NCBI GenBank assembly: GCA_002269645.1
Contig: NIVC01003397.1
Location: 1 to 64,000 of the forward strand
DNA: 64,000 nt
Reading direction: 5' to 3'
Source of the DNA: Macrostomum lignano
Lineage: Eukaryota
Shown: piece after piece, positions 3,818 through 43,993 of the stretch
How positions within the stretch are numbered: the first letter of the stretch is position 1
Layout of the letters: every line of letters starts with the position of its first letter
Position numbers and translations under genes: made by a program
The notes under the pieces: generated by a model
Seen by the model: the letters and a program-made list of their open reading frames with translations, nothing else
Told to the model about the DNA's origin: nothing
Databases searched by the model: none

Positions 3818-3833
3818 AATATTAAAATAAAAA

Positions 3834-4280
3834 ATGACAAAGATTGAAACCAGAACCATCAATAAACTCAATAAAATGATTGAATCAAAGAAACCAGGTC
3901 TTATATCAATTAAAGGTGTCAAAGTAAAAATCAATCCCGTGCAGCAAATAGTTCAGTGTAATGAGCAAAGACTCAGCATTACAGATGAAAAGTCAGGAGG
4001 AATCCTACCATTAGCAGCTCTTATCCCAATCATTGCAGGCGCTGTAAGTGCCGCAGGTGGTGTAGCTGGAGGTGTAGCAACTGCTGTTAAAGCTGGGAAT
4101 CATAGAGCCCACCAGCTAGAATTGCAAAAGATTGCAAGAGACAAAGGTATAACAATTAAGGCAGGAGAGGGCTGCCCCGATCGTGATGATTGTGATCATG
4201 AAAATTCTTTTAGCAAGTCTGACATTGTCAAAGCCATCATGACACTGCACAATGCTGGGTTTACAATAATGCGCATGTGA
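3834..4280 (+). CDS. Polinton small virion-type protein with adenovirus pX/mu-like hydrophobic segment
   Basis: Intact 148 aa. KSGG-ILPLAALIPIIAGAVSAAGGVAGGVATAVKA resembles the adenovirus pX C-terminus (GG-ILPLLIPLIAAAIGAVPGIA). Confidence 0.6.
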   Translation: MTKIETRTINKLNKMIESKKPGLISIKGVKVKINPVQQIVQCNEQRLSITDEKSGGILPLAALIPIIAGAVSAAGGVAGGVATAVKAGNHRAHQLELQKIARDKGITIKAGEGCPDRDDCDHENSFSKSDIVKAIMTLHNAGFTIMRM

Positions 4281-4403
4281 TGAGGTTTAAAACCCAACTT
4301 TATCCAGCTTCATAAACCCAACGCTACTGATAGGATGTTAGAAACAGTTCAACTTTTCTATCAGGGTCGTCACCCTCAAAAGTTTGTTATTTTATAGAAA
4401 AAA

Positions 4404-7400: not shown

Positions 7401-8130
7401 CGGGTGGGCGATGAGTCAAGATCTTCCAGTTAGAGATTTTCGATGGCCAATTGTATCAGAATTCAAATGGGACTTTTCAATACCCGGCATTTGTGAGGTT
7501 GATGTTTACATTCCACCAGAGTTTCACGACTATATCTCTGACTTTCCACCCTTCCCAGAGAACATCAAGTGCCCGAAAATAATCGAAAATCCCAATGGAA
7601 CTTGGCACCTGTCAGGAACAGAAAAAGAACATACAGAGAAACTAACACAGAATCTAAACAACAAGACACGTTACAAAATTCATTACAAACTGCTTCAGTA
7701 TTTTATCTCACTTGGTTGCAGGGTCACCAAAGTTCACAGGGCTCTTAATTTACAGAGGAAGCGTGGATGAAACCCTACATTGATAAGAACACCCAGTTTA
7801 GGACCAAAGCAAACCAACGACTTTGACAAGAACCTCTTTAAGTTGGCCAACAACTCTGTCTATGGCAAGACTCTTGAGAATGAGCGGAAAAGAACAAACC
7901 TGAAACTTGGTTCCTCATCAGAGCCTGCTGTTATTCAGGCAAATATGTCAAAGCCAACATTCAAAGAACTCCATATCTTTAATAGCTACTTAGGTGTGAT
8001 CATATTTTACAAAACCAAGGTGACGCTGCGCAAGCCGATCTATACAGGTGTCACTGTTCTCGACGAATCAAAACGTCTGATGTACCAGTTCTTCAACTGG
8101 GTAAGTCAAAGCCCTGAGAATGGTATTTGA
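4404..8130 (+). pseudogene. Protein-primed family B DNA polymerase (pPolB), frameshifted, SINE-interrupted, truncated before motif C
   Basis: GSGW...YDPLKASSYI, VVYADFEC (ExoI), VRDHCHYTGKFRGAAHNTCN, CHNAKNYDMHLI (ExoII), LKDSYQFLAASLDEL, KGFYPYE, YTDVFLLADVFE (ExoIII), YLDANNLYGWAM (A), KLANNSVYGKT (B). No YxDTDS motif found. Confidence 0.92.
6006..6371 (+). mobile_element. tRNA-derived SINE inserted in pPolB
   Basis: A box TAGCCCAGCGG (6018), B box GGCTCGATTCC (6061), A-rich tail, 8-bp TSD TTCAGCCT (5998-6005 / 6372-6379). Removing it restores KLISTLQP-FPIIMSEEDE. Confidence 0.85.
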
Positions 8131-12852: not shown

Positions 12853-13032
12853 GTCAAGTTTCGAGCTCCGGTTGTTGTCAGGCAGCGGTAGTTAGGATGT
12901 GGTAGTGCGAATATCTGTCTCCCTCAAAAATATCTTGGGGAATTGGATAGTGTCCATTTGGAGAATTCCTTTTTTAACCATCTCTAACAATAAAAATGAA
13001 AACTCTGTCTGCGTGTGTCTGTCTGTGGACAA

Positions 13033-13079
13033 GGGTTAGGGTTAGGGTTAGGGTTAGGGTTAGGGTTAGGGTTAGGGTT
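13033..13079 (+). repeat. Interstitial telomere-type (TTAGGG)7 array
   Basis: Direct reading. Confidence 0.95.
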
Positions 13080-13269
13080 TCTTCCATACTTTCTCTCTCC
13101 TGATCCTTTTCCACCCTTTCCCTCAGCCACTCCCGACCCCATCTTTTTCTCCTCTGCGCTCCCATTCGCTCACTGTACCCCTCGCGCGCTCCCATTGGCA
13201 GTAACCTCCTCTCAGTTTTTATATTTATTAAATATACCTGATCCAACTTAGGACTCTTTACTAACTAAT

Positions 13270-13308: not shown

Positions 13309-13396
13309 CCAAATCCCTTTTTAGCTACTGTCTTTTTAGCCTTCCTTATTTTAAGTGCTCAGCGGCCGACTGGTCTGACGGATCAGTAATCCTTGT

Positions 13397-13443
13397 CCTA
13401 ACCCTAACCCTAACCCTAACCCTAACCCTAACCCTAACCCTAA
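13397..13443 (-). repeat. Interstitial (CCCTAA)7 array facing the 13033 array
   Basis: Direct reading. Confidence 0.95.
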
Positions 13444-13460
13444 AATTTACTGACATTTGT

Positions 13461-14273
13461 TTAATGAAAAAAATAAAGTAAAATTCTTTTCTCCTTATTA
13501 ATCATGACAAACTGATAGGGTTGGTTCCACTTTTCATAGCATATGTTAACAAATTCCTCCTGTGAAATTGTTCTGTCAGAGTTCTTAGCTAGATATGTAA
13601 TGTGAGCTGGGGCAATGACCTCATTATAAAATCGTTTCAGTCGATCCTGTGGTATGGTTGGGAAAAGGAGAATCAAATTACAGTTACCTCTAATTGTTTT
13701 ATTTGGCAGTTCAAACCAGTTTTGGGCAATGTAAATAACATTGCAGTTATTGTGTCTACCCCGGGTGAAATAATTTTCTATCTGTTTCTGGGGACCGGTC
13801 ATGCAGTCATTAAAGACAATCAGGTGCTTTCTCCCCTTTTCCAGTTCATCAGGTTGAGGTAAGAGTTTAGTTTTAGGATCTATCTGTGGATCTCCATAAG
13901 TGAAAACTTTAATGTTTTGCCACTTTTCATTGTCTGGGATGTGTTTTGCGTATTCAGTGGCTACAACTTCCGGGTTGCTGTTGAGGTCTTTTTGATGTCT
14001 AAAACATTGAATAATATCTTCCTTGTTGAGTTTGTTCTGTAGGCCCGCTACTAGCATTTTATACTCATCTTGATACAGAGTGGGTGAATAGATATGTAGT
14101 GTGTCATAATCGAGGAATCCAGGTCTGAGGAGCATGTTAAAAACTCTGAAGGTTTTCCCTGACCCAGATGAGCCAACAACAATGCATCGGAAGTGCCCTG
14201 GAATTATCTCGTTGTAAGCAAATTTTATCTGATTGCGTGTCCAGTGGGGATGAAAGTCGTTTGTGAAGTCCAT
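13461..14273 (-). CDS. Polinton A32/FtsK-like DNA packaging ATPase
   Basis: Walker A GSSGSGKT, Walker B LIVFND (first Asp is Asn), FTRGRHNNCNVIYIAQ arginine-finger motif; 270 aa open. Confidence 0.92.
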   Translation of the reverse strand: MDFTNDFHPHWTRNQIKFAYNEIIPGHFRCIVVGSSGSGKTFRVFNMLLRPGFLDYDTLHIYSPTLYQDEYKMLVAGLQNKLNKEDIIQCFRHQKDLNSNPEVVATEYAKHIPDNEKWQNIKVFTYGDPQIDPKTKLLPQPDELEKGRKHLIVFNDCMTGPQKQIENYFTRGRHNNCNVIYIAQNWFELPNKTIRGNCNLILLFPTIPQDRLKRFYNEVIAPAHITYLAKNSDRTISQEEFVNICYEKWNQPYQFVMINKEKRILLYFFH

Positions 14274-16168: not shown

Positions 16169-17455
16169 ATGAACGATCTCCTGACACCGGTTTTCGATAA
16201 GATTAACAAGCCTATTTTAAGTGATGACAGCACTATTAAAGCGACTCAGGTAAGAGTTCCCAGTCAGGAAAATCAGAATGAAACTAATTTTGGTCCTGGT
16301 CAAACACTGACATTCACATACAATGGATGTTCGTCTCTGGTTAGTGTGCACAGTCTTAAGAGCGGCTTCAATATGACATTTCAATTCAAGACAAAAGGTG
16401 GAGATGATGCTGCTCATGCTAACGTTGACAAGCATGACGCGGATGTGGCTCTGATCAGTAACTTTTGGGCGTACATGTTCAAGGAGTTTAGTGTATCGAA
16501 TGGGAGCACAGAGTTGGAGCGAATCGCCAACTTTGGAATTGTCTATGACGCTCATCGTTTGATGGAGAATCCGGATTTTATTCAGTTGGGAAGTGGTGCA
16601 GGTTTTATTGCAGATCAAAAAGAAGGAGACACCAATGACAGTGGCTATAAAAAGAGGAAGAAGAGATACAACTATGCTTTGCAAGGTGCTAATGATGCTG
16701 CTAAGAACCCGCTGTATCGGTCTGTTGATGTATTTGTACCACTAAGATTCATGAGTGGATTCTGTAATACATTTAATCGACTGACTAGTAACTTTAGCTA
16801 CACCTTTAAGATGACTAGAGATGATCGCAGTAGAGTGTTGTGGACTGGGGCGGACCACACTAGGATGGATGTGAAGCTAACCGGAATCGAGTTGTATTTG
16901 GAAGTCATTGAGCCAAAGACTGCACTAAAAGCAGACTATCTTAAGGCAATAGAGAAGGACATTGATGTTGCATACACGGCCTACATGTGTCGAGATGAGC
17001 GAAACGAAACTAGAACAAACATCTGCATCAAAGAGGGATCATGCAGCAATCCAAGGTATATCATTATTAACATGAGAAACCTAAATAGCATTATACGCTA
17101 CATGCATGGAGACTTTCGGTCCATTCAGCATGAAATCAGTGATAATCTTTACCCTGCACTGCCAAAAAATGGTGATTTCAGTCAGAACAAGATTAGCAAA
17201 TTTTACAGCGAGTTGGTCGACTTGGCCGTGAAAGAGAACAATGGAAGTGCTATCACTGCTCTTCAATATGGAACTCTATATCCGATGTTTGGCGCTGATG
17301 TGTCTGCCAGACAAATTCCTACTGATAACAGCCCTGTGAATATCGTGACTAACATTGAAAGGACTGCCGCAACAGCCGTGGACCTGTACATTGTCTATGC
17401 ATTTGAGAGGAAGGTGAAGCTTAACATGATCAACAATTCATCCAGTAAAGTTTGA
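16169..17455 (+). CDS. Polinton major capsid protein (double jelly-roll)
   Basis: Intact 428 aa, DDS-type N-terminus, LYPMFGADVS...DLYIVYAFERKVKL C-terminus; lies beside the penton and ATPase genes. Confidence 0.8.
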   Translation: MNDLLTPVFDKINKPILSDDSTIKATQVRVPSQENQNETNFGPGQTLTFTYNGCSSLVSVHSLKSGFNMTFQFKTKGGDDAAHANVDKHDADVALISNFWAYMFKEFSVSNGSTELERIANFGIVYDAHRLMENPDFIQLGSGAGFIADQKEGDTNDSGYKKRKKRYNYALQGANDAAKNPLYRSVDVFVPLRFMSGFCNTFNRLTSNFSYTFKMTRDDRSRVLWTGADHTRMDVKLTGIELYLEVIEPKTALKADYLKAIEKDIDVAYTAYMCRDERNETRTNICIKEGSCSNPRYIIINMRNLNSIIRYMHGDFRSIQHEISDNLYPALPKNGDFSQNKISKFYSELVDLAVKENNGSAITALQYGTLYPMFGADVSARQIPTDNSPVNIVTNIERTAATAVDLYIVYAFERKVKLNMINNSSSKV

Positions 17456-17474: not shown

Positions 17475-18338
17475 ATGGAGGCCATAGCCGAAAGACTAAA
17501 CAACATTGTTTCACACTCTAAGGAGAGCATTCCTATTACAATAACCGGGCGAATTAATGACTCAAACGGGATATTTGTTGAAAAATTAGAGCAGGCGATT
17601 CGCCTGGATCCAGGTGCTAATTACCATGTCTATCTTAACGACTTCACTGGTTAGTCAAACGTTCCCAATGTGATGGCAGCAAATAATAAGTTTCATTACA
17701 AATGGAAACGAGCAGCAGCAGATCCTGTGGCATTCCCTGTGAGCACGCAAAGTGTGGATACCTACAATTACTTTCTAGAAAACGTCTTTACTAAAAGAGG
17801 CCATTTTGAGACACCTGATGCGAGTAAGCCAGAGAAGAAACTATTCCCTGTCAAACTAACCTATGATCTCACTGTAATGAGAGTGGTCATGCAAGTTCAC
17901 AAAGATGCGGAGGTTGAGTTTAAAGATGACACTTGGTATAGGGAATTGGGATTCGAGAAGAAAGTTTATAAGGCTGAATCCACAGCGTGGACCGCCCTTC
18001 AAGCGTCGGGGGCCGTTAGCATGGCCCGGGAAAATGTAAGCGGTTTTTTCTTAGCACCCAATATTGCAGATATTGTAAAGGGTTTAAATATTCTAATCAG
18101 AAGTAATCTTAGTCTTGATTGGGTATTTAAGGGAAAGCGAACGAATATTTTGTACAACATCTCCAACTCTGTAGCTGGAGGACAGATGGTGGTAGAGAAA
18201 CCAAATTCGGTGAAAAGAGTTGTATTGAGTAATAAGGAGATTCACGAGATTGTGCTACAGTTTGAGACTGAAGATGGGTTGGGTGTTGATTTCAACGCTG
18301 AAGAGTTTGTACTGACGTTGATCATTGAGAGAATGTGA
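17475..18338 (+). pseudogene. Polinton minor capsid (penton) protein with one TGG>TAG nonsense at 17652
   Basis: IRLDPGANYHVYLNDFTG*SNVPNVMAANNKFHY and NILYNI...VEKP...IHEIVLQFETEDGLGVDFNAEEFVLTL; same frame across the stop. Confidence 0.8.
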
Positions 18339-18976: not shown

Positions 18977-20285
18977 TAAGTGGCGTTGCTTTTTTGCTTA
19001 AGTTTTTATTAAGTAAAGACGTTCTCTGACTGTTTTTACCCTGGTTGCCTCTCTGGTAGCTTGTCTAAGGGTTGTGCGCAATCCGATTGGCTATGCCAAT
19101 TTCTAAGGGTCCGCCCCGGAGGGGCTGTGCCCGTTCTAAAAATAAACCTATTTTTTCTCTCTATATCCAATTTCGGCCCTCGGCCCTGGTTTAGGGGGGG
19201 TGGTGCCCGGAGTGAGTTGTCTCTCTGGACTGCAGTGTGGCTAGGTCGGGACTTGAGCCCCCCGGTCGTACCCGCCCTGCAGGAAAGCATGACCAATTCA
19301 CAAAGGTGTACGGTAGACCCAGTAGACTGCCAGCCCTGAGGCTGAGCACCCGGGCTGCAGGTCGGCAAGCTGCCTGCTTTAGGGCTATGGTGCTCCTCCT
19401 TCTGCCAATCTTTTTTTCTGGGCTGGCATCCCAGCGCTGTTTTATCCCTTAGCTTTGTGCCTTTGTGGCTTTTATTATTTTATTCTTTTATCTGGCCACT
19501 AGAAGCCTTCCAATCTTCGGAGTTATGAGCTCTGCCCTTGCCCGGTCCATCTTGCCCTGTCCTCGGGTCCATCTCCTGGCTCCTGCTGCAAGGTCCCTGC
19601 TTGCGTGTCTCTGGCTCTCATCCTGACAGTGGATTGGTGTCCTGGGAAGGATGTTCGTCCCGAACGGGGACAACCGGCTGAGTCCGGAGTCCTCTTGCCC
19701 TGGGTGCCTCTCTCCCGACCCCTTGGCCTGGCCTCCAATATTGAGCTGGATAGGCGATGCCCTTGGGTTGGTAGCAATAGAGGTGTGTATGTCCGCCTAG
19801 AGTCTCCCCCTCGGATACAAGCCTTCCAGACTCACTCCAAAATAGAGCTGGGTAGCGAAAAGCCTTGAGGCTCGAGACCTACAGTTTATGCGGTTGCTGT
19901 ATAGGATCGCTCTTGGTAAATAGCTGCCCAGACTCTCTCCAATAGTTAGCCCTTTTCCAAGACTTCTGGGTTTCCCCGCTCTTGGACGGCTTTTTCAGTA
20001 ATTCCAATTCTGTTATTTCGCGCACTCCCAAGGACTTGTCTGCTGGGGGTGGCCTGGGTGGACTCGGTCCTAGCACCGTCCCTGATTCCACTGTTGGTTT
20101 GGCGGTGTCTTGTACCGTAGGTTTGGGTCTAACTCGCCCCCCCCGCGCTTTGAGCCGGGTCCAATCCAATTGCATCCATGGGGTATCTCGGGCCCTGGAC
20201 AGATAATGCCTTGGCCCCTGGAAGTGCCCCTCGCGGCAGAGCCCACCCCAGGGCTGATCCGCGGGTCCCCTAGGACCCTTTCGTT
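18977..20285 (-). mobile_element. Degenerate retroelement-like fragment (target of the Gypsy insertion; continues 29241-29275)
   Basis: FQGP...WTRLK resembles an integrase C-terminal GPF/Y tail. Direct repeat AAGTGGCGTTGCTTTTT at 18977 and 29252. Confidence 0.35.
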
Positions 20286-21148
20286 TGATGTGTTCCTTAT
20301 TACCCGACTTTCGATAATCAAGGAACAATCACTTCTAGCTCAACAGCTAGGCAACCCAGTAAGTCAAACGAAGGTATTCAATTACCTTTAATCCGGATTT
20401 GAATTTCTTGAGTAGTTCTCGCTAGGAACTCGTCAGTAGATCTCGTAGATCAGGCGCCTTGATTCTTCAGTTGCTCTGGTCCTGGTTCCTCTTGTACTTC
20501 CGATAAGTTCTTCCGGCCGGTATCTTCCGTCAGGACCAATCAGAGGCCTCGTAGCAACAATGGGTACCCTGCGCCAAAACTGCGGTCTAAATTAAGCCTC
20601 CTTCTTCTAGCAGTGCCTCTATGCACTCTAGGTATAGCTCCGGAAACCACTGATAGTCCTCTAAGATCTATCAGGGGCAGTCCTTCTGGAGACTGCAACC
20701 AATGGAGTCTAAACAGACTCAAGAGTCTCAACAGACTCAAATGGACTCAAGTCTCAATAGACTTGAGCGAGACGTCTCTAACACAACAGGCGCAAATAAG
20801 GAAGGCTTACCGCAACAACTCGACCGAGTCTCGATTGACTTGGTGATCAGGAAGTCCTCCTAAGGCTTCCTCTTCGGAGCGCTCCTCTTCCGTGGGGAGA
20901 ATGGCTCCGGTACCGCTTCAGATCGCTTGTATTTATAGGCAACTTTTTGCTCCAAAATAGTATCATGACAATTCACGTGTTGCGCTAAAAGGGGAAAATG
21001 GCTCATGGCGTATTATTCTGGTAACATCTTTTCTGGTAGCGTGATTCATTCAAAGCTTAGGCGCACATGCGTATACTTACTTACTTATAGTAGTATTATA
21101 CGATTATCTTCTTTTTTTCTGTTTTTGCGGGAGGCAGAACACTCTACA
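20286..21148 (-). repeat. 3' LTR
   Basis: TGTAGAG...CACATCA on the minus strand, TATAAA at ~20935, preceded by the PPT. Confidence 0.95.
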
Positions 21149-21151
21149 AAA

Positions 21152-21163
21152 TCTCCCTTTTTT
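21152..21163 (-). promoter_or_regulatory. Polypurine tract
   Basis: AAAAAAGGGAGA just before the 3' LTR. Confidence 0.8.
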
Positions 21164-21275
21164 ACGAAAAACTCGTCCCGAGTTTTAACAATAAAATAAT
21201 AAAATTCTGTGGTGATCAGTTAATATAGGAAATAAACAATTGATTTTGTGCGCGTCTAGAGAAGCGAGGGATTGG

Positions 21276-21710
21276 TCAAAGCTCTAAAAACTTTTCAGTA
21301 CATATTGCGGTCAAAACTCGAATATCGCGTAGACATCGAGTGGCATCAGGTTTGATACGACACCACTTTCGAAACGTGCAGTCTCGCGGCATACTATTAC
21401 TTAAGGGGCATCCTATAATGCCCCTACTAGCGGTTTGCTTCAAACCGTGCATGCAAATAAAATGTTGGTGGTTACAATATTGAAACGTGCGCCAAGAATA
21501 ACAATAGGCGCATTGTCGCAAACTATCTCTACAGAGGGGACAATTCTGCCATGGCTGAATATAATGTGAATCGCTTAAACATTGTCCGCAAACGTTTTGT
21601 CCGTTGATGCAAATAATCGGTGGCTTGACAGCCAAGTCATCAGTTAAACATATCGGGCAGTCATATAGCTGCTGAGGTTGGGGTGCCTGTTTTGACAGTG
21701 CGTTGCCCAT
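21276..21710 (-). CDS. Accessory N-myristoylated SINA/Siah-like RING protein
   Basis: MGNALS (MGxxxS); CPICL...PPIICINGQNVCGQC...CPLCR; a second Cys/His cluster; located between IN and the PPT. Confidence 0.7.
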   Translation of the reverse strand: MGNALSKQAPQPQQLYDCPICLTDDLAVKPPIICINGQNVCGQCLSDSHYIQPWQNCPLCRDSLRQCAYCYSWRTFQYCNHQHFICMHGLKQTASRGIIGCPLSNSMPRDCTFRKWCRIKPDATRCLRDIRVLTAICTEKFLEL

Positions 21711-21830
21711 AATTGTCGTCAATTTGTCGCTGTTTTTGTGTCGCTCGGATTAGTCGCCTTTTACGACAAGCTTGCGAAGCTGTAGTGCTATTCTTTATCC
21801 CGGTCACTACACGGGGTTGTTCTCGAAACT

Positions 21831-23732
21831 CTAGCGTGGTCGTAGGTTGTAGCCATGTGGCTGGCTCACATCTGTCGTTTGAGTCTCCTCGTGCTTTGTC
21901 GCGACGTGACGGTTCGTTGAACGCGTGCGATCGGCGTTGTCCAATGTCGGTAGAAACGTCGCGGTGTCAGTGTTGATCTTCTTTAGTCGATGAATGTGCA
22001 CGTAGAATTGATGCTGATGTGGATCTTGCACATTAGCCAGGCGTGCCGTTGTTGGTGACGTTAGTTGGACCACTCGATAGGGTCCTTTGTACTTCTGCGC
22101 GTGTTTATGCGTCTGCTGTGGCGGGTAGTGCAGGTAAACGATGTCGCCGGCCGTCAGGGTTGTCGATCTCGCGTCGTTGCCGGTGGTCAGAGCCACCTGG
22201 TTGTCAATATTGTGCTTGGCGATCTTCCATGCGAGGTGTAGCTGCGTGACAAATTTTTGAATGGAAGTCGGTACTTCCACGTACTGCGATGGTAGCAATT
22301 GCTGTGCGAGCAGATTCGGCGGTTGGAAGTCTCGTCCAAACATTAGGAAGAATGGCGTATTGTCCGTTGATCGATGAATAGCGCTGTTGTAGGCCATTGT
22401 TACAGATTGCAGGTAGATGATCCAGTCTTCCGGCTGTTGGTGCGCGAAATGTGTAATCATCTCGTGCAGGTTGCGGTGAAACCGTTCAACCATGTTTGCC
22501 TTCGGATTGTAGGTCGATGTGTAGATCTGCGTAATGTTGAGAATCCTTACGACTTGCTGAAACAGTTGCGATGTAAACTGCGATCCGTTGTCCGATGTGA
22601 GGTTCTTTGGCGTGCCGTACTTGCAAATGATTTCGTTGAAGAAACTCATTGCCACTGTCTGAGCTGTGATGTCCGGTATCGGTATGGCGATAGCAAACTT
22701 CGAGAAGATATCCAAGGCGGTTAGAATGTAGGTGTAGGCAATGCCCTGGAGACAGCTCGGTGGCAGTGGTCCGGTGATGTCGATGCTTAGACAGTCCATT
22801 GTAGTCGACTTCGGAATGGACTGTAGCTGCGGTTTCTGTCGTCGTCCTGTCTTTGATGCAGCACATGAATGGCAGTTGTTGCAATACTGCTTGATGTCGC
22901 CGTACATAGTTGGCCAAAAGTAGTATTGTTCCACTCTCGCAATGGTCTTTGCGGCCGACAGGTGTCCAGCGAGTGGGTTGTCGTGCAGTTCGTTGAGAAT
23001 TGCTTGCCGAAACGAATATGGTACGTAGATCTTAGGTTTATTGTCGCTCATCCAGTAGAGCCGTGACTTATTGATTGTTAGGTGTTGTCGTTGCTTGCGT
23101 AGGAATTTTCGTTCCATGGGACTGAGTTTGATGTTCTTGTCGTCGTCTTTAACCGCTTGGTAGAAGTTGTCGCGCTCGGTTTCATCTACCAACTCTTTGA
23201 TGTTAGGGATTGGGTGAATGGAGTTGACTTCATAGGCTCTTGACAGGGCGTCCGCGGCCTTGTTAGTAATTCCTGGTTTGTAGACGAGCTTGTAGTTGTA
23301 GTCCTGGATCTTGAGTGTCATCCTGATGAGTCGGTTGTTTGTTTGTCCTTTTGTAGTTACGACGTAGGTCAATGGTGCATGATCCGTGCGTACTATCGTT
23401 TGTATTGGAGAACCATAGATGTAGTAATGAAACTGTCGCAGGGCGAACAAGACTCCTAGTAGCTCTCGTTCCGTAGCTGACCACTTTGTCTCATTTGGTT
23501 TGAGTGCTCGACTGACGTAGGCAATATGTCGTTCCTTCTTGTCCTTGGTCTCCTGTAGTAGGACTGCTCCGAGTCCCGTTCCTGAGGCGTCTGTCTCGAT
23601 GATGAAGGGCTTGTCGAAGTCCGGATGCTGTAGCAGTGCGTCTGATGTCAGCTGTCGTTTGATTTCGTCGAAACTTTCCTGTTGTCTCTGTGTCCAGTTG
23701 TCTTGCTTCCATTTGTCGAACTTGAGTAGGTC
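21831..23732 (-). CDS. RNase H and integrase portion of pol (same frame as 23733-27677, after one TAA)
   Basis: IETDASGTGLGAVL, WSATERELL, VRTDHAPL, LHDNPLAGH...C..C zinc finger, LSIDITGP, LTSDNGSQF, NMVERFH, KYKGPY. Confidence 0.92.
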   Translation of the reverse strand, partial: DLLKFDKWKQDNWTQRQQESFDEIKRQLTSDALLQHPDFDKPFIIETDASGTGLGAVLLQETKDKKERHIAYVSRALKPNETKWSATERELLGVLFALRQFHYYIYGSPIQTIVRTDHAPLTYVVTTKGQTNNRLIRMTLKIQDYNYKLVYKPGITNKAADALSRAYEVNSIHPIPNIKELVDETERDNFYQAVKDDDKNIKLSPMERKFLRKQRQHLTINKSRLYWMSDNKPKIYVPYSFRQAILNELHDNPLAGHLSAAKTIARVEQYYFWPTMYGDIKQYCNNCHSCAASKTGRRQKPQLQSIPKSTTMDCLSIDITGPLPPSCLQGIAYTYILTALDIFSKFAIAIPIPDITAQTVAMSFFNEIICKYGTPKNLTSDNGSQFTSQLFQQVVRILNITQIYTSTYNPKANMVERFHRNLHEMITHFAHQQPEDWIIYLQSVTMAYNSAIHRSTDNTPFFLMFGRDFQPPNLLAQQLLPSQYVEVPTSIQKFVTQLHLAWKIAKHNIDNQVALTTGNDARSTTLTAGDIVYLHYPPQQTHKHAQKYKGPYRVVQLTSPTTARLANVQDPHQHQFYVHIHRLKKINTDTATFLPTLDNADRTRSTNRHVATKHEETQTTDVSQPHGYNLRPR

Positions 23733-26700
23733 TTACAGTGGCTTTGCTGTCTTTGTGAAGTTAGGTAAGAACTTCCTGAAGTATTGCGCAAGTCCAAGGA
23801 ATGATTGGACCTTCGTTATACTGGTTGGCGTAGGAAACTTCTTCACCTTTTCCACATTGTCCGGGTCCGGTGAGATTCCTTTGGCTGTCACTTGGTGTCC
23901 TAGGTAACGCACGTTGTCTCGGAAGAATTTGCATTTCGTCGGTTGCAGCTTAAGACCTTGGCGTTGAATGAGCGCAAGGGCCTTCTCCGTAGCTTCGTAG
24001 AGTCGCTCGAAATCCTCTCCATAGGCCAAAATGTCGTCGACATAGTGCAGCAGGTTCGTGCATCCTGCAAGCATGTATGCTGTCAGTCTGCTCATCGTTG
24101 CTGGGCTGTTGCTAAGTCCCATCGGCGATCGGTTGTACTCGTAGACTTGTCCATTGTAGGTCTTGAAGGCTGTGTACTGGCGCGATTCCTGGCGAGTGAT
24201 GAACGCTTGCAAGAAGTCGTTGATGGTCCATCCAGGTGTTATCTCATCGAGTTGGATATCGGCGAATGGCGTGTACTTCGTTCTGTTGAACCGTATCTTC
24301 AGGTCGTCCATATCGTACGTTTCATCGACAATCACTTCTGGTTCTGTGATGTTTGCTGTCGTTCCTGTCGTTTTAATGACGTGTAGTGCATCGTCCAGTT
24401 GATAGTAGTTTGCTGCAGTGGTGCAAGGTCTTGGTATTGCGGTTCCAACGATGATGTTGTGTACCGTGTCCAAGAATCCTTGTATTCTTTTGCCTTCGTA
24501 GAATGCTTCAATTCTCGGTTTGTCGTAGCAAGTTGCTGAAGTGTTCGACGGTAAGATGTTGAAGTGCTGTATCGGCGTGCACTTGTATATCAGGAGATGT
24601 CCATATATCGGAATTGCCAGAACATCTCTCATTCCAGTGATCTTGCGAAATGTCATCGTAGGGTTGACATAGTAGTTTTGTCTTGCGTAGTTCAAGTTGA
24701 TTGCGTGCATCTTGCAAGTTAACTGAACCAGTGATCGGTGTAAGTGGCTTAGCTGGTTATGCAGGTTGTGATCCAGCGCCGTGATCTTTGCTGACAGTAG
24801 TCGGTTCGACACCAATCGTGGACGTTCTATGTCGCGTCGTTGCCTTTCTTGTTGTTGATACGTTCCGTTTATGATCGCCAGGAAGGTTAGTTTGTCGTCA
24901 TCCTTTACATAGACTGGTATTTCTTGCTCCGAGATGAATAGCGTCTTGTCCGTATCCTTGCATTTGAGTTCCTGTTCAACCGGCTTCTTTTGAAACGTCA
25001 AGGCCAAGTCTCCTGCCTTTGCCAAAAACGTATTCGACAGTAGTCCTCCTTCCACCGTGTGATACTTTTGAAGCTTGCAGTCAATTTCCGGCTCTACTTT
25101 CCATGCGAAGAAATATTGTCGTGACTTGTACGGTTCCTCATAGTGTGATTGTGCTCTGTGCTCAATCTGCCATCGATAGTCTTGATGATATGTTGGACTC
25201 AGTGGTAGACTGTGTAGTTCTTCCTTCCGTAGAATTGGTGTTGGACACCATCCCTCACTGTATCGACATTCGCTTAGTTGCAGCTGTAACGATTCCATTT
25301 TCTCGTACGGATTGTAGTAGAATGGAATATTTCTGATCAAGTAGCTGTTGCGTGCCATATATTCTTTCCATTTTCCGAAGAAGTGAATATATCGACCGTT
25401 GGCTGAATTCTTTGTTCTGAACAGCTGTGCGTTGCCGACCTTCTCATCTGGTTCCAGTTCACCATCTTTTGAAAATAGTGTTTGGTTCCATTGTAGGCAT
25501 TCCGCGTGTGACACATGTAGCTCATGTTGTTTAAATCGGATCCGGTTCCATTGTCCGCGCCAAACTTTTTCCACCAGGTGCTTGTCTCTGAAGCATACTA
25601 TTCCGTGTTGTCGATGCTTCTTGATGTTAGCCTTGTAGAGATCGAGTGTAATCTTCTTTGGTTTCGTCTGGTTTGTCTTGAAGTAGCTGCATTTGATGTC
25701 GGTTGGTATCTTGTAGATCATCGGTTGGATATGCGCATCCGTTGGACAGATCATTGGCTTTTCCGTTGCCGTTGCTTTGGCGACTACTGCTATCAGTAGT
25801 ATCACGATGATCCAGTATAGCCAGTTTTTCCACTTTTTGGACCTTGCCGTTGTCTTTGCTGGCATTGGCGGCGATCGCCATTCGTTATCTTCCATGTCCG
25901 CATCATATCCTTCCGGTTGTTTCATTGGTTGTTTCAGGCGGAAGGCTTCTGATTCGCTTTGCTTTTTGGTTATTTCAGTATCTTCGTCTGCGGCTTCTTC
26001 CGATGTTTCCGTTGTTTCACTCCATTGCGTTTGGTATCTTTTCTCTGTCTTGTAGTCGACCGTTTGAATATAGGCTTCACCATTTCGTTTGTATCGTATC
26101 TCGTAGCATTCGTCGCTGTCGGAACTCGGCTTTTCTTTCATCTGTTCTTTTTCCATTTCTTCATCTTTCCATTGTATTTCGTAGCCTTGATCGCTGTCGG
26201 AACTTAGATTTTCCGCTCTCAGTTCTTCCTGCATTCCTCTTTCGGCTTGGTAGTCGTTCGTGTCATCACGCACCTCGCAGTCGTGGTCGTTGCCGTAACT
26301 TCTACATTCTTCTTCTTCTTTCATTTCTTTGTCTTTCATGCTCGTTTTGTCGTCATCCACTGTTGTCGATTCATAGTTGTTTTCTTCGCCGGTTTCCATC
26401 TTTTCTTCGTTACCGATGTCGCTCTCCGCCTCCTCCCTTTTCTTGTGATTTACTTTCTTCCTGTTTTCTCTGCTGTCTCCGGTGGTCTCTTTTAATTTGA
26501 TCATTTCGGTTTCATTCGCCTCTTCTGTGTTGTCAGTGTTGTCCTCGTGCGTCGTCTTCTTTTCGATCAAGCTGATGTCAACTTCCGGGACTGTGAAGTC
26601 CATTTCCAAGTCGTCAATTGTGAACACTTGCTGTTCTTGCTGCTCATTTTCTGGTGTGTACGTGATGGCATTCGCGTATCGTGGCATTGCTTGCGTCGGC

Positions 26701-27677
26701 TGTCTTTGTGTGTACCTGACGTTGCGTGGCCTGTAGCCATTATTTCTGAAGCGACCGTCGTTTCCGAAGCGGCCATCATTTCCGGAGCGGTCATTATTTC
26801 CGAAGCGTCTATCATTTCCGAAGCGTCTTATGCCTTGTTGTTGGCGATTTTGATATTGCTGCCATGGTTTCTGCGGCTTTTGATTGTTGAATATCTGTCG
26901 CGGCTTGTCGTACCTTGTTGACCAATGAGGACAATTAATCTGATAATGTCCTTCTTGTCCGCAGTAGTAACATCTGGCTGAGGCTTGTTCATTTCGTCTT
27001 TTTTGTTCGGCGATAGCAGCTGTCTGGTGCTGCATTAATTTGTTTAATTGCTGCGTCAGTTTCTGCACTTCATTGTTGCCTGTCGTCATTAATGGGGCAC
27101 TGGCTTCCCATTGCATTCCGCATCGCAAAAGGTCTTCTTCGGTTTCGATATTTTCACGCAAAAGTCTATCCCGAAGTGACGGCTGTGCGTTGTTTATTAC
27201 GTGCAGGATGAGGTTTTGTTCGCGATCCATCAATCGTTGTCTTTCTCTGGCGGCCAATTCTGCCGCTCCCAGTGGCGGTTGGTCCGCAGCTTGCAGCGGT
27301 GGCTGATGCAGTGCCTTAATTATCTGGCGGATATCGTCCACAAAGGCGAGGAAGGATTCTGTTGCTTGCATCCTTCTGTTATGTAACTTGTGCAGCAGCA
27401 CTGATCTGTTTGTGCCGCAACAGTTGAAATGCGCGCGCAGTTGAATGATTAGTGCTGGATAATTTTGCTGTGTTGCTGCATCCAGCTTGCCGTAAATTTC
27501 TCGCGCAGTACCTTGGAGAAGAGGTGGCAGCAGCTGTGCCTTCTCTGGATTTTGTAGGTTGTATTCCCTACATACCAGGTCAAAATGGTCAACAAATGTG
27601 TTAAAATCTTTCTCCATCGAGAAGGTACCGACCGTTTCTTTGATGTCTCTGTGTACCGTTGGATTGCGCCGCGCCAT
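23733..27677 (-). CDS. Gag - acidic linker - signal peptide - Env-like ectodomain - N-truncated RT polyprotein
   Basis: Gag with CYYCGQEGHYQINC; WLYWIIVILLIAVVAKATA signal; Cys-rich ectodomain with 5 N-glycosylation sequons and RQRR furin site; fused to ESRQYTAF...PMGLSNSP...YVDD. No protease and no TM anchor. Confidence 0.88.
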   Translation of the reverse strand: MARRNPTVHRDIKETVGTFSMEKDFNTFVDHFDLVCREYNLQNPEKAQLLPPLLQGTAREIYGKLDAATQQNYPALIIQLRAHFNCCGTNRSVLLHKLHNRRMQATESFLAFVDDIRQIIKALHQPPLQAADQPPLGAAELAARERQRLMDREQNLILHVINNAQPSLRDRLLRENIETEEDLLRCGMQWEASAPLMTTGNNEVQKLTQQLNKLMQHQTAAIAEQKRRNEQASARCYYCGQEGHYQINCPHWSTRYDKPRQIFNNQKPQKPWQQYQNRQQQGIRRFGNDRRFGNNDRSGNDGRFGNDGRFRNNGYRPRNVRYTQRQPTQAMPRYANAITYTPENEQQEQQVFTIDDLEMDFTVPEVDISLIEKKTTHEDNTDNTEEANETEMIKLKETTGDSRENRKKVNHKKREEAESDIGNEEKMETGEENNYESTTVDDDKTSMKDKEMKEEEECRSYGNDHDCEVRDDTNDYQAERGMQEELRAENLSSDSDQGYEIQWKDEEMEKEQMKEKPSSDSDECYEIRYKRNGEAYIQTVDYKTEKRYQTQWSETTETSEEAADEDTEITKKQSESEAFRLKQPMKQPEGYDADMEDNEWRSPPMPAKTTARSKKWKNWLYWIIVILLIAVVAKATATEKPMICPTDAHIQPMIYKIPTDIKCSYFKTNQTKPKKITLDLYKANIKKHRQHGIVCFRDKHLVEKVWRGQWNRIRFKQHELHVSHAECLQWNQTLFSKDGELEPDEKVGNAQLFRTKNSANGRYIHFFGKWKEYMARNSYLIRNIPFYYNPYEKMESLQLQLSECRYSEGWCPTPILRKEELHSLPLSPTYHQDYRWQIEHRAQSHYEEPYKSRQYFFAWKVEPEIDCKLQKYHTVEGGLLSNTFLAKAGDLALTFQKKPVEQELKCKDTDKTLFISEQEIPVYVKDDDKLTFLAIINGTYQQQERQRRDIERPRLVSNRLLSAKITALDHNLHNQLSHLHRSLVQLTCKMHAINLNYARQNYYVNPTMTFRKITGMRDVLAIPIYGHLLIYKCTPIQHFNILPSNTSATCYDKPRIEAFYEGKRIQGFLDTVHNIIVGTAIPRPCTTAANYYQLDDALHVIKTTGTTANITEPEVIVDETYDMDDLKIRFNRTKYTPFADIQLDEITPGWTINDFLQAFITRQESRQYTAFKTYNGQVYEYNRSPMGLSNSPATMSRLTAYMLAGCTNLLHYVDDILAYGEDFERLYEATEKALALIQRQGLKLQPTKCKFFRDNVRYLGHQVTAKGISPDPDNVEKVKKFPTPTSITKVQSFLGLAQYFRKFLPNFTKTAKPL

Positions 27678-28357
27678 GTTGTTGATAGGATAGAACGGTA
27701 GTTCAAGATCTGGATCGATTTGTAACGGATCGTCCAGTGTGGTGTTTGCCTCGGAATAAACCTCGACTGTAACGAATTGCCTTGCGGTGTCGATCTGTTA
27801 TTCGCTGGCCTCGAAGTTGCGGCTTGCTGCCACTGGTTGTCTTCAAATGAACTTGTTCTGTTCGCTTGCCGATTTCGCACTTATGCGGCGTCCCGCAAAG
27901 TGTATCTTGAAGTGGACTTTGTCTTCTTGCTTTGCAAAGGCTTTTTTTTCTCTTCTTTCCTTCTTTGTCAATTAACTCCGCTCTCCACGAAGTTTCAATT
28001 AATTTCGGTTTGTTTTAGTTTTTGTGCCGGCAAAATGCTTCAGTTATTTTTTTGTTTGTTTTGCGTCGACGATTCTTTTATTTTCGGTTTGTTTTCAGTG
28101 TACCGACGAAGTTTATTTCGGCTTTGTATTTAACTCACACTTGCTCGAGCTCGTTAAAACAAAAATTAACACGTGTGCTCAGTTGTACTCAAATTTGACA
28201 GGTGCTCAAACCTGTACACCAAATTTACTCGAGTTTCAAAACGTAACGGACTTAAAAAGTGTTAACTCTAACACGTGCGCGCAAAATTAATGAAGTCGCT
28301 CTGTCGTCACTTTACAATAGCTTGATCAGGGCTATTGCTCAAAGTTTGAGTAGTGCC

Positions 28358-28375
28358 GAGAGGGCGAGATCACCA
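28358..28375 (-). promoter_or_regulatory. Primer-binding site
   Basis: TGGTGATCTCGCCC.. begins 2 nt after the 5' LTR; the tRNA was not identified. Confidence 0.7.
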
Positions 28376-28377
28376 AT

Positions 28378-29240
28378 TGATGTGTTCCTTATTACCCGAC
28401 TTTCGATAATCAAGGAACAATCACTTCTAGCTCAACAGCTAGGCAACCCAGTAAGTCAAACGAAGGTATTCAATTACCTTTAATCCGGATTTGAATTTCT
28501 TGAGTAGTTCTCGCTAGGAACTCGTCAGTAGATCTCGTAGATCAGGCGCCTTGATTCTTTAGTTGCTCTGGTCCTGGTTCCTCTTGTACTTCCGATAAGT
28601 TCTTCCGGCCGGTATCTTCCGTCAGGACCAATCAGAGGCCTCGTAGCAACAATGGGTACCCTGCGCCAAAACTGCGGTCTAAATTAAGCCTCCTTCTTCT
28701 AGCAGTGCCTCTATGCACTCTAGGTATAGCTCCGGAAACCACTGATAGTCCTCTAAGATCTATCAGGGGCAGTCCTTCTGGAGACTGCAACCAATGGAGT
28801 CTAAACAGACTCAAGAGTCTCAACAGACTCAAATGGACTCAAGTCTCAATAGACTTGAGCGAGACGTCTCTAACACAACAGGCGCAAATAAGGAAGGCTT
28901 ACCGCAACAACTCGACCGAGTCTCGATTGACTTGGTGATCAGGAAGTCCTCCTAAGGCTTCCTCTTCGGAGCGCTCCTCTTCCGTGGGGAGAATGGCTCC
29001 GGTACCGCTTCAGATCGCTTGTATTTATAGGCAACTTTTTGCTCCAAAATAGTATCATGACAATTCACGTGTTGCGCTAAAAGGGGAAAATGGCTCATGG
29101 CGTATTATTCTGGTAACATCTTTTCTGGTAGCGTGATTCATTCAAAGCTTAGGCGCACATGCGTATACTTACTTACTTATAGTAGTATTATACGATTATC
29201 TTCTTTTTTTCTGTTTTTGCAGGAGGCAGAACACTCTACA
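28378..29240 (-). repeat. 5' LTR
   Basis: Near-identical to 20286-21148. Confidence 0.95.
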
Positions 29241-31224: not shown

Positions 31225-31621
31225 CTATTAGCTACTAGAAATAAAAGATGGGTACATGTACTTGCCTACACACATTCAAAGAAAGTTGACTTCAGAATGC
31301 AAAGATAACCATAAATCATAAAGCCAGTAACATTTGTTTTCTTGAAAGACATCATACTAGTCATTTCGTGCATTTAAAAGCCATTAAATCTATTAAATAA
31401 AGACGGTAAAGTTTCGGTAAATTTTGACGTCAAAACAACGTCACAGATCTAGGTCAAAATTACGTAAAAAACATCGACAGAATTGACGTCATTTCAACGT
31501 CACACTTTGACCTATTTTCAACGTCAGTTTGACGTCGCGCAACGTCACTTTGCTACATGGGGTGCTTTGTAATAGGAACCTGGAGAGACAACTGGAAACA
31601 TTTTTAGAGAAAATTTAGTTT

Positions 31622-32049
31622 TTTTTCAAAAAGTGAGGACCCTGCGCTGATGATTTAAAGTCTTTGGGATATGGTTTCGCCGCTTTGGATTGAATGTGGG
31701 CCCCATGGGGAGAAGGATGCAGATTCTTTTCTGATTGTTTCTGGGTGGATGTCAGTGGATTATGTCAGTGTCAGTGAGCATAACAGGTGTTAGTGGACAT
31801 CTGTTATGCTCACTGATTCTGTCGGGGATAGATTTAATGGGATTATGGAGGGGGTTTTATGGGCGAGTAGGACCCCATTTTTTTCTTCAGGGATAATATG
31901 GATGGATTTAGGTGGATTATGGAGGATGTTTTGTGAGCGAGTGCGGCCCCCCTATTTTCTGATTCTGTTGGGGATAATATAGATGGATTTAGGTGGATTA
32001 TGGAGGAGGTGAAAAATTTTGTCCCAAAAGCCCCCTCATGACATCTACT
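31622..32049 (-). repeat. Right Polinton terminal inverted repeat
   Basis: Reverse complement of 618-1098 with differing subrepeat number; ends TCTACT. Confidence 0.8.
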
Positions 32050-32693: not shown

Positions 32694-35600
32694 ATGCCGC
32701 TACCTCCTCGTGGTGAGAGTGGAGAGCCGCGCTTAACTGCTGCGGCGGCCAAATGCGGCAGGACCAAGCGAGGGCAGCGGAGCGCGCGTCGGCGAGTTGA
32801 ACGCCGTCGCGAGCGAAACTGGCGAGGTCGGCAACGTGGCGCCGCCCGCCGAGCTGCTGCTGCGCTGGCCCAATTGGATCTTCCGGGTGGCGCCGGGGAC
32901 CATGAGGCTCACCAGCATCGAGCCCCAGCCGTACCAGAGGGCACGCTTCGGGTCGGGACGCTGAACTGCCGCACTCTCAAGGCCACATGGCGGAGAGGGC
33001 TGCTGGCGAGGCTAGCGCTCGACCTCAGCTGTGATGTCATCGCACTACAGGAGGTGTCTATCAGAGCCGACCCCGGACTTCACTGTGAGGACCTGGCGCC
33101 GGTTGGACACTCTGGTACACCTCAGCGGATGAGCGAGGCCGTGGAGGAGTTGGAGCGCTGATCGGACCGAGGCTGCAGCAGAGCTGTCGCTGCATCTCCC
33201 TGTCTTCTCGGCTGCTTCGGGTCGACGTCCGGCTTCGCGGCCGGAACACCCGCCTGTTCTGCGCGTATGCGCCGCCTGCTACCCGCTCCGATGAGGCTCA
33301 GGCCTTCTTCGAGCAACTCTCGGTGCGGGTGGAGGAGATGGCGCAACGTGACACAGTGGTCATTTTCGGAGACCTGAACGCAGTTCTGCGTAGGTCCGAG
33401 CGATCGCTGTTTGTGACAGCGCGCGAGAACGGCAACACCGGAGCGCTAGAGGACTTTCTGGAGAGACAGGACATGGTGTCGGCCAACACCAGATTCCGCA
33501 AGTCACCGGGCAGGCTCGCGACCTTCGTGGGCTGCAAGCGGAGGCGGCGGAACGCGCGCGGCCGGAACGCTACGCGGAGGCTGGCACAGCTCGACCACGT
33601 GCTTGTGCGCTTTCGTGAGCGCCGCCGCGTCACCAACTGCCACAACTGGCTCACTCCCGACCATCGGCTGCTCATCTGCGACCTTCGGCTTCGGGACCCG
33701 CTCTACCGTCCGCCAAAGCGGCCACCGCGGCGCTACTACCGCGCGCTCAGGGACGCCGAGACGCGACGTCGCTTGCCGGTGCCTTTGTCACTGCGCTGGG
33801 CGACAAGCGTGGAGGAGCCGAGTACGCGGAGGTGAGCGCTGCAGTTCGAGCCGCTGCGGAGCAAGCAGTCCCGCTGATGCGACCGGCCCAGCGCGGGCAG
33901 CCGGTCTGGCAGGACGACCCCGCGATCGACGAAGCGAGGGAAGATCTGGAGAGGCTCCGACTGAGTGGGCGGCCAACTCGCGAGGCGGAGGAGGCTCTGG
34001 CGGCTGTCTACCTGCAGCGGCAGCAGTCCGCTGTCGATGACGCCATCCAAGCCGTCTCTGCCGCAGGGCCCGATGCCAGAGGGCGCGTGGCCTGGTCCGC
34101 CATCAACACTCTGACGGGGCGAAAGCGGCGCATCGCGCTCAACCTGGCAGGCGACACTCCGGATGAGCGCAGGAACGAGCTGCGCGAGTTCTTCGCCGCC
34201 ATTGTCAACGCGCCGCCCCCTCCGCTTCCAGAAAATCTGAGGCTGCCGCCGGAGACGCCGTTGCCGGCGGAGGAGAGCTTCAATGTTGCCCCAGTCAGCA
34301 CAGCCGACGTTGTGAAGTTCGCTCGGCAGTCGCCGGGCGGCAAAGCGCTTGGTCCGGACGAGGTGCCCTCCGAGGCGCTGCGGATCCACTGCGTGGCCAC
34401 TGAGGTCGCCAGAGTGATGAACCGCGTTCTTTTCGGTGAGGTGGCGCCAAACGAATGGACCACGGCGCACATCGTCGCCATTCCAAAGAAGCCGGGCACC
34501 ACCAAGCTCGAGGAGCATCGAGGCATCTGCCTACAGTCCTGCGCCGCGAAGCTGTTCAACCGCATGCTGCTATCGCGGTTACAGCCTGTGCTGGACCCGT
34601 ACCTGCGACCTGAGCAGAACGGATTCCGGCCCCATCGCGGCACAGTGACGCAGATCCTGGCTCTTCGACGAGTCATCGAGGAGGCGCGCATCCGCCAGTT
34701 GACCCTGATCCTGATCTTCGTCGATTTCAGGAAGGCTTTCGACTCGGTCGTGAGGGACGCGCTCCCAGAGGTGCTCCGTGCGTACAACGTGCCAGAGCTG
34801 CTGATTTCTGCTGTCATGGCGCTGTACCACGGCACGACGGCTGCTGTCTCAACACCGGACGGCCTATCGGATTTCTTCGAGACATCCTCCGGGGTGCTCC
34901 GGGGAGATACGCTAGCGCCGTTCCTATTTATTCTGGTGCTTGACTGGGTGCTACGGACTGCTCTGCCTTCCTACGACGACGGCTTCCTGCTGCGGCGACG
35001 CGTGGGTCGACGCCAACCGGAGAGACGGCTCAGCGTGCTTGGCTACGCCGATGACCTCGCCCTGCTGTCCTCGACCGTCGAGGGCGCCCAACGACAGCTG
35101 GATAGGCTGGTTGCCGTTGCGGCGAGCGTCGGCCTGGTGGTCAACACGCAGAAGACCGTCGTGCTATGCGTGCCGGACGACACCGAGGCTGCAATCTTCT
35201 GCCGAGGCGCTGACGGACAGGCGAGTGAGCTTCCAAGATGTCAGCAGTTCGTCTACCTCGGCGGTCTGGTTCCCGACGTTCGCGAGGATCTGCGGCGTCG
35301 CCGAGGACTTGCCTGGGCTGCCTTTCGTTCTATAAGGTCAGTCCTGCAGTCCGAGGCCCTACCGGACCGCCAGAGGGCGGCGCTGTTCCAGGCGGTGATC
35401 GAGACCGTCCTGTTATACAACGCCGAGACCTGGACGCTGACAGACTCGCTCGAGGCTCAAGTCGACGCGGCGCACGCTGGCCTGCTGCGCGCCGCCTTCA
35501 AGATCGGCAACGAGCGAGTCACCAACACGGCGCTCTATCATCGCGCCGGCCTGGCCCGTCCTAGCGATCTGCTGCGCCGTCGGCGACTCCAGCTGGCAGG

Positions 35601-35796
35601 CCACGTCATCCGCGCCGAGGCCTACTGTCCGGAGCCGGTGCAGGAGGTGCTGCTACTTACGTTGCAGGCACCCTACCGGCGGGGACAGGCGAAGACTCGG
35701 CGCTACGTCGACTGTCTGCTGGCTGACGCCGGTGCCCCGGACTCTGCCGGCGGTGCGGCTTTTGTTCGCGCCCAAGCTTTGAAGCGCGCCATCTGA
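32694..35796 (+). CDS. APE endonuclease-reverse transcriptase ORF (two 1-nt deletions at ~33095 and ~33773)
   Basis: VGTLNCRTL, IALQEV, IFGDLNA, LDHVLV, DHRLL; KALGPD, QNGFR, FVDFRKAFDSV, GVLRGDTLAP, YADD. Confidence 0.88.
32695..32760 (+). ncRNA. HDV-like self-cleaving ribozyme core
   Basis: P2 TGCCGC/GCGGCA, P3 ACC/GGT with L3 TCCTCGT, P1 3' strand GAGAGT then GG (P1.1), P4 GCCGC/GCGGC, J4/2 CAAAT. The P1 5' strand was not found. Confidence 0.65.
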
Positions 35797-43528: not shown

Positions 43529-43993
43529 ATGATGCGAGAGTCCTCATCTTCAGAGGAAGACGAAAACTGGAAATATGCTCAAGGACCATCTATGAGTTTA
43601 ATTCAGCCCTCTCTCATCCAGCCAAAATTTGGTACCCCGGAAGATAACCGACCCTTAAGTCCGCAGCAGCAGCCCCTGCATCTAAAGCTAAAGGATTCGC
43701 CAGCATCTATTGCTGTTCGAAAAAACTCTAGTACATCAGCTCTTGCAGTGCCTTTTGGTGGATGTACGCCCGCGATTCGCCGAGCCTCTGGAGAGCCACG
43801 TTCGACAAGCCCCTCTCCCAGCATACTGTCTGTCTCGGATGGCCTTAGCGAAACTGACCAAGAGGCTGACAGGCGGGAAAGACTACTCCTTTACGTTCTT
43901 GTCATGCGCTGCATTGCCTACCCGTTCTGCGCCAAGCAGCCCACCGACCTTGCTCAGCGGCAACTTAAAGTTACACCGGCACAGCTGCTCCAG
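43529..43993 (+). CDS. CADPS: CAPS exon 1
   Basis: ATG 43529, donor CAG|GTTTGC. Confidence 0.85.

Follow-up and report, generated by a model that had tools for sequence, protein, structure and literature searches.

An intact reading frame of 144 codons, termed P0001, lies between the integrase and the polypurine tract of an LTR retrotransposon in the window (the whole stretch of DNA that was analysed, 64,000 nucleotides in length), and its predicted product combines two RING-like zinc fingers with a candidate N-myristoylation signal. In our estimation the chances are about even that P0001 is an accessory tandem-RING E3 ubiquitin ligase, possibly membrane-anchored, with eroded zinc sites, a description that is based on sequence comparison. 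We infer the RING fold, the E3 activity, the myristoylation and a subgenomic mRNA of P0001, and the naming of any host target would be speculative. The element consists of the following parts:

20285-21148, minus strand: 3′ LTR, an 864-nt match, with TG...CA ends when its last base is assigned to the 4-bp target-site duplication
21152-21163, minus strand: polypurine tract
21276-21710, minus strand: accessory ORF P0001, 144 aa, with an MGxxxS motif, RING-like fingers 1 and 2 and a basic, Cys-containing tail
21399-21512, minus strand: RING-like finger 2 (residues 67-104), 6 of 8 ligands in the window copy
21528-21659, minus strand: RING-like finger 1 (residues 18-61), 7 of 8 ligands
21690-21710, minus strand: candidate N-myristoylation signal (Gly2, Ser6, Lys7), a sequence motif only
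21711-21830, minus strand: 120-nt spacer from the integrase stop to the P0001 ATG, with no obvious pyrimidine tract
21831-23732, minus strand: RNase H and integrase frame, 633 aa
23733-23735, minus strand: in-frame stop that interrupts the RT connection region in the window copy
23736-24180, minus strand: C-terminal RT remnant that matches RVT_1 only at profile positions 86-205 and is joined in frame to env, with the deletion junction near 24180-24196
24198-25760, minus strand: Env ectodomain of class III (gB/chuvirus-like; PF24664), without a C-terminal anchor in the window copy
25761-27677, minus strand: Gag with a CCHC knuckle (residues 236-251), together with an acidic spacer and the hydrophobic env leader, in frame with env
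28364-28375, minus strand: primer-binding site, identical to that of the Mlig_errantivirus_2 entry
28377-29240, minus strand: 5′ LTR

The two LTRs differ at 2 of 864 positions and the element is bordered by a 4-bp target-site duplication, thus the insertion is recent. The gag-env-pol order is present, with RT, RNase H and integrase and a class III env, and the protease and the start of RT are missing from the window copy. The env region matches PF24664 (Monjiviricetes_fusion) at an E value of 2.7e-4, which is below the cut-off, the polyprotein has its only hydrophobic stretch at about residues 617-641, and the integrase is identical to PAA57774.1 (Macrostomum lignano) at 405 of 406 paired residues. 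By its features, rather than by alignment to a published copy, the element would be a gypsy (Metaviridae) GAG-ENV-POL errantivirus in the wide sense, of the Mlig_errantivirus_2 family. The entry for that family (Chary and Hayashi, PMC13524379, supplementary file 1, row 1445) agrees with it in LTR length (863/864 nt), in the identical 12-nt primer site, in the gB-type env, in the GAG-ENV-POL order given for flatworm elements and in the host species of the near-identical integrase; 16 copies are given in the supplement, where env is annotated ENV_HSV, and the name is absent from the ENV alignment file. The accessible text of the same publication reports the GAG-ENV-POL order with a gB-type env in flatworms, nematodes and bryozoans. 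Among viral contigs no relative of Pol or Env was found (0 of 6 and 0 of 2 pattern matches, respectively). The heat-shock LTR families in the accessible part of PMC12801592 were considered as well and appear to be different families, one alignment showing 337-nt LTRs of other sequence.

The window copy is defective: a deletion of about 1.6 kb, from env into RT, has removed the protease along with the last part of env and the first part of RT, and pol contains a stop. It measures 8,956 nt, and the published representative of 10,591 nt is 1,635 nt longer (PMC13524379, supplementary file 1); contigs of other copies continue into different sequence at 24179-24214. The first-pass annotation overlooked the broken env and pol. 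Since Env of the window copy lacks an anchor and Pol is broken, the joint action of P0001 with Env that it had proposed would depend on other copies of the element. Gag, an acidic low-complexity spacer of ~300 aa and Env share one frame (23736-27677, minus strand), as noted in planarian Burro elements.

The retrotransposon lies inside a Maverick/Polinton-like region (about 618-32049) that ends in inverted repeats (about 618-1100 and 31619-32049). The region contains integrase and broken polB-like frames (3221-7770, by eye), an A32-type ATPase (13461-14273), a double-jelly-roll capsid gene (16169-17455) and a probable minor capsid gene (17673-18338). Two telomere-type (TTAGGG)n tracts in opposite orientation (13032-13082 and 13385-13443) flank a 300-nt stretch of it; with these telomeric ends, the stretch might be a small mobile element. 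The 3′ LTR adjoins a GC-rich stretch (19050-20284), whereas the flank next to the 5′ LTR is AT-rich, and the GC-rich stretch is possibly part of another insertion. Further along the window there is a GC-rich non-LTR retrotransposon, RTE-like by eye, with endonuclease and RT frames (33089-35796, plus strand), followed by the exons of a host gene (43433-56974, plus strand), whose introns hold a Mag-like gypsy element (49242-53110, minus strand) and a Tc1/IS630-like transposase (53835-54929, minus strand). The host gene appears to resemble CAPS/CADPS.

P0001 runs from ATG to stop (144 codons plus the stop, 21710-21276) and begins with MGNALSK. The first-pass annotation had described an intact 144-aa frame starting MGNALS between integrase and polypurine tract, and so it is, on the minus strand, which had been left unstated; the plus-strand reading of 21276-21710 contains many stops. 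The ATG lies 120 nt past the integrase stop and the frame ends 127 nt ahead of the 3′ LTR. In first-order Markov simulations that kept the dinucleotide make-up of this 682-nt gap, an ATG-initiated frame of at least 144 aa arose in 27 of 20,000 cases (a fraction of 0.00135), and therefore the length of P0001 is unlikely to be due to chance. The GC3 of P0001 is 0.41 versus 0.59 for the RNase H-integrase frame (p 9e-5) and resembles that of the Maverick genes (0.41-0.44), which is suggestive of a separate origin; the 3′ UTR and the LTR are also T-rich, so that no donor is named. There is no second RING gene of the P0001 kind elsewhere in the 64-kb window, the surrounding Maverick included, and the RING-like pattern occurs in none of the 123 other proteins collected, which are mostly Pol homologues.

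Other copies of the element were sought in sequencing runs: 20 of the 24 listed contain part of the region, and four (X2, X7, X10 and X16) were examined in detail. In X16 a 907-nt contig (record 9, 21238-22144) contains the whole of P0001 and the end of the integrase with 30 differences and 0 gaps, at a depth of 4.59, which is low, so that some of these differences are possibly errors. In X7, a run labelled as another organism, records 25 and 26 cover P0001 without gaps and one of them joins it to the integrase. A diverged contig of X2 keeps the length of codons 34-65 (94 nt vs 94, as inferred from the record length). Because contigs of other copies join P0001 to the integrase without gaps, P0001 belongs to the element family and not to the window copy alone, and the earlier claim of an accessory gene carried by the retroelement holds at the level of the family. 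None of the 12 indels listed (of 41) falls in P0001, all 12 being located in UTR, leader or LTR. Absence or disruption in other copies was what the first-pass annotation had set against its own reading: the frame is open in the gap-free contigs, but in 3 of the 4 runs there is, at minority depth, a joint by which codons 88-144 are lost or exchanged for other sequence.

Among the 40 best-supported differences listed (of 849), two lie in P0001, one synonymous and one nonsynonymous, and in env 16 of 17 are synonymous. None of these 40 affects codons 2, 38 or 89, and since codons 38 and 89 are not among them, most copies of the family probably have Gln38 and Gly89 as well. At codon 104 the contigs of all four runs carry a ligand-type residue, thus the loss of this ligand is private to the window copy. 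None of the 15 joints listed (of 22) is a splice joint into the 120-nt spacer, and SL trans-splicing was considered as an expression route for P0001 and found no support here. As the RNA origin of runs X10 and X16 is only guessed, their contigs are not evidence of expression. Summed contig depth over P0001 is 0.82-1.57 times that over RNase H-integrase, a value that is not a copy number and is not relied on. Elsewhere in the element, contigs of X2 skip most of gag and env (24970-28257 and 24998-28378, the second also in X10); the family thus has more members with internal deletions, present as DNA. Over the LTR (28224-29045) the summed depth in X2 and X10 is far above that of the internal region and loose ends are numerous, which is a hint of solo LTRs or of non-autonomous elements related to this one.

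The pattern of Cys and His residues is as the first-pass annotation had described it. In finger 1 it consists of C18-x2-C21, PPI at 30-32, C34, N36-G37-Q38, C41-x2-C44 and C57-P-x-C60-R61, and the second cluster of C67, C70, C79, H83, C86, H88 and C101. What had been missed is the nature of the second cluster, to which the comparison with a homologue points. A search of 1.84 billion protein representatives gave two matches, P0004 and P0005. P0004, a protein of 206 aa from a 2,070-nt contig, is 43% identical to residues 16-127 of P0001 (E 2.2e-20), non-Cys identities included, and is the one credible homologue found; P0005 (E 1.4e-8), a predicted fish protein that consists of tandem repeats and lacks the ligand pattern, was rejected as a repeat artefact. 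In a word-indexed protein search P0001 alone recovered 0 of 2 candidates and the P0001-P0004 alignment recovered P0004 only (1 of 221 candidates), and no PHROG family was found for P0001. All 16 ligands are present in P0004, eight in each finger, compared with 13 of 16 in P0001 (7 of 8 in finger 1 and 6 of 8 in finger 2), and P0004 has His at the position of Gln38. The two fingers of P0004 align to each other as an internal repeat (37% identity, E 3e-6). Because P0004 shows two full-ligand repeats, the second cluster of P0001 can be read as a second RING-like finger and Gln38 as a departure from His, and the family is best described, on these alignments, as a tandem RING-like protein. Taken alone, the second finger of P0004 gives only weak RING and zinc-ribbon matches, and that of P0001 gives no Pfam match.

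The worry of the first-pass annotation that Gln in place of the canonical His may indicate degeneracy was justified, given that finger 1 of the window copy has another residue in place of the His and its finger 2 departs from the pattern at two ligand positions. Is P0001 then a decaying passenger, a once-functional tandem-RING gene whose function is lost or fading in the lineage of the window copy? The substitutions in both fingers relative to P0004, the shorter tail (144 vs 206 aa) and the occurrence, in 3 of 4 runs, of a minority form that lacks codons 88-144 speak for decay, but the frame is open in the gap-free contigs of other copies, the listed indels (12 of 41) are outside coding sequence, 13 of the 16 ligands are retained along with the E2-contact residues at 43% identity, and the start, with its MGxxxS motif, is a strong one. 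We regard decay as unlikely, and the accessory ligase with partly eroded sites as the preferred reading.

The assignment of finger 1 to the RING class can be judged from several profile searches. Against Pfam, the isolated finger 1 matches RING families with E values of about 1e-3; the isolated domain scores 19.7 bits with Sina_RING (PF21362, cut-off 29.3) and 19.5 bits with zf-RING_2 (cut-off 27.3), full-length P0001 has Sina_RING as its nominal top match (15.6 bits), and full-length P0004 matches zf-RING_2 only (13.8 bits). Pfam searches with P0001, P0004 and the isolated fingers gave no RING profile at its curated cut-off. A two-sequence profile searched against the PDB gave 10 matches, 9 of which are RING domains (UHRF1, TRIM21, TRIM25, MAT1, MEX3C; E 0.065-7.3), and the atlas neighbours that have a family are RING clusters, many of them viral, from large DNA viruses, at a recognition value of 2240, which is weak, being under the 2300 mark. 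Two AlphaFold2 models have pLDDT values of 33 and 34, too low for use. All of the profile evidence is sub-threshold, yet it has one direction and points to a RING. Moreover, Ile20, Leu22, Pro58 and Arg61 (after the last Cys) are common to finger 1 of P0001 and P0004, and the hydrophobic helix position is Ser in P0001. We take Ile20, Leu22 and Pro58 to be E2-contact positions and Arg61 to be the linchpin, hallmarks that finger 2 is without.

More specifically, the first-pass annotation had called the finger SINA-type, which would make P0001 a captured fragment of a host SINA/Siah E3 ligase. A RING-type finger is what P0001 and SINA/Siah have in common, and the PPI-x-C-x-NG motif and the nominal first place of Sina_RING (at 15.6 bits for the full length and 19.7 for the domain) agree with such a capture. 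However, Sina_RING ties with the generic RING profile some 10 bits under its cut-off, and it does not match full-length P0004 at E values up to 1; the PPI is not conserved, being missing in P0004. Neither the SINA zinc fingers nor the TRAF-like substrate-binding domain has a Pfam match in P0001, which stops at 144 aa. No cellular SINA protein occurs among the homologues at E values up to 0.001, and no Siah chain among the PDB matches. The label is not supported, and descent from a host SINA gene is considered very improbable.

The start of P0001 fits MGxxxS with Lys7, for which the chance is about 0.4% at the composition of the ORF (Gly 4.2%, Ser plus Thr 10.4%), a figure noted post hoc. P0004 begins, at its called start, with a Met that is not followed by Gly2, and this start may be miscalled. 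No transmembrane segment is found in P0001 (maximum 19-residue hydropathy 1.01). Might P0001 act in the manner of the arenavirus Z protein, as a matrix protein with a RING and a myristoyl anchor by which the capsid is connected with the membrane and with the class III Env? It shares with Z the RING-type finger and the Gly2 motif, Gag itself has no Gly2, Env is of a negative-strand-virus type (PF24664), and an arenavirus Z cluster stands at rank 20 in the atlas with a score of 0.86, which is a lead only. The first-pass proposal of a Z-like matrix or budding factor is nevertheless not supported: neither P0001 nor P0004 matches zf-P11 (PF03854), P0001 has two fingers instead of one, and no late-domain motif (PT/SAP, PPxY or YPxL) is present in P0001 or P0004, the called start of the latter being without Gly2. 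Furthermore, other gB-type elements are reported with three genes only in the accessible text of PMC13524379. A predicted complex of Gag residues 1-260, P0001 and zinc scored 0.01, which is uninformative either way. A matrix role of this kind seems distinctly improbable.

It is rather unlikely, if somewhat easier to accept, that P0001 is a non-catalytic zinc-finger adaptor, binding protein or RNA in nuclear export, anti-silencing or chromatin and transferring no ubiquitin, like the Cys-rich CERV of Cer1. The erosion of zinc site 2 in finger 1 and the basic tail would suit an adaptor, and accessory regulators with Cys fingers do occur in LTR elements (PMC10309623, accessible text). On the other hand, the E2-contact residues of finger 1 are conserved in P0001 and P0004, an N-terminal lipid motif is a poor fit to a nuclear role, and CERV is a spliced, Gag-linked protein of 517 aa that is not a RING.

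With the tandem-RING ligase as the preferred reading, the following course of events may be proposed. P0001 would be the fourth, accessory gene of the GAG-ENV-POL gypsy element and would be made from a subgenomic RNA. Its finger 1 would bind a host E2-ubiquitin conjugate and act as an E3 ligase, and finger 2, which is without the E2-contact hallmarks, might have a structural role or take part in pairing or in the binding of substrates. The protein may be tethered to membranes by its Gly2 motif. In particle-producing cells P0001 could ubiquitinate host defence or trafficking factors that limit the element. Since the zinc sites are partly eroded, this activity may be weak or altered in the window lineage. 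We further propose, tentatively and as a doubtful possibility, that an env-bearing LTR retrotransposon has its own membrane-anchored tandem-RING ubiquitin ligase as a counterpart of the E3 proteins of large DNA viruses, which disposes of factors of the host defence or promotes the release of particles in a ubiquitin-dependent way, and that related genes, of which P0004 would be one, have perhaps been overlooked in the 3′ regions of further errantiviruses of invertebrates.

The element is already known, and P0001 appears to be undescribed. The main text of PMC13524379 contains no mention of a RING, a zinc finger, myristoylation or an accessory or extra ORF, and its supplementary file 1 none of a RING. 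In the titles and abstract openings of the literature covered, from which most subscription papers and Repbase were absent, a separate RING gene in an LTR retrotransposon was not found described. Accessory genes in gypsy elements are known as such; it is the stand-alone tandem RING after the integrase of a gB-type element that was not found described, and surveys of env-bearing gypsy elements annotate gag, pol and env only. A self-encoded E3 ligase, if true, would mean that env-bearing gypsy elements can be 'complex' in that they possess genes for counter-defence, and it would offer a testable handle on persistence against host silencing in a flatworm model with working RNAi and transgenesis. 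Were P0001 only a relic, it would still be useful, in a modest way, as a marker of gene capture.

Several known systems may be compared with P0001. Small viral RINGs, which form Nucleocytoviricota clusters, are its nearest atlas neighbours and have in common with it a C3HC4-like finger of C-x3-H spacing. Proteins of the ICP0/IE2/PE38 type are viral E3 ligases. Four loci (L001-L004) with 30-39% identity over finger 1 were rejected as relatives by descent: they are generic single RINGs retrieved by the CPICL pattern, their matches cover finger 1 only, and they show a fold class, not descent. Rotifer LTR elements carry ORF3 genes, which are, as P0001, captured non-env genes downstream of pol and specific to families, but these encode DEDDy exonucleases, GDSL esterases and transmembrane or coiled-coil proteins, a RING being unmentioned in the accessible text (PMC5408684). 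The sORF2/FAST-like genes of the MDG1 group are likewise small accessory ORFs of Metaviridae; they have an MGxxxS/T motif and, in a part of the elements, lie downstream of pol. As described in the accessible text, however, a transmembrane segment is required for sORF2, and the elements that carry it are env-less (PMC11952523), whereas P0001 has zinc fingers and, because it has no transmembrane segment, is not a sORF2/FAST protein. The planarian giant gypsy elements Burro and GYPSM1 are also from flatworms, have env in frame between gag and pol and carry accessory domains related to ubiquitination and apoptosis (PMC6431247, accessible text), namely MATH/TRAF, BIR, BCL2-like and ubiquitin-like domains and an AIR1 motif annotated as a RING Zn-finger. 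In these planarian elements the ubiquitin- and apoptosis-related domains reside, according to the same text, in a polyprotein of 4,900 aa or in an upstream ORF (PMC6431247), whereas P0001 is a separate, small tandem-RING ORF placed after the integrase.
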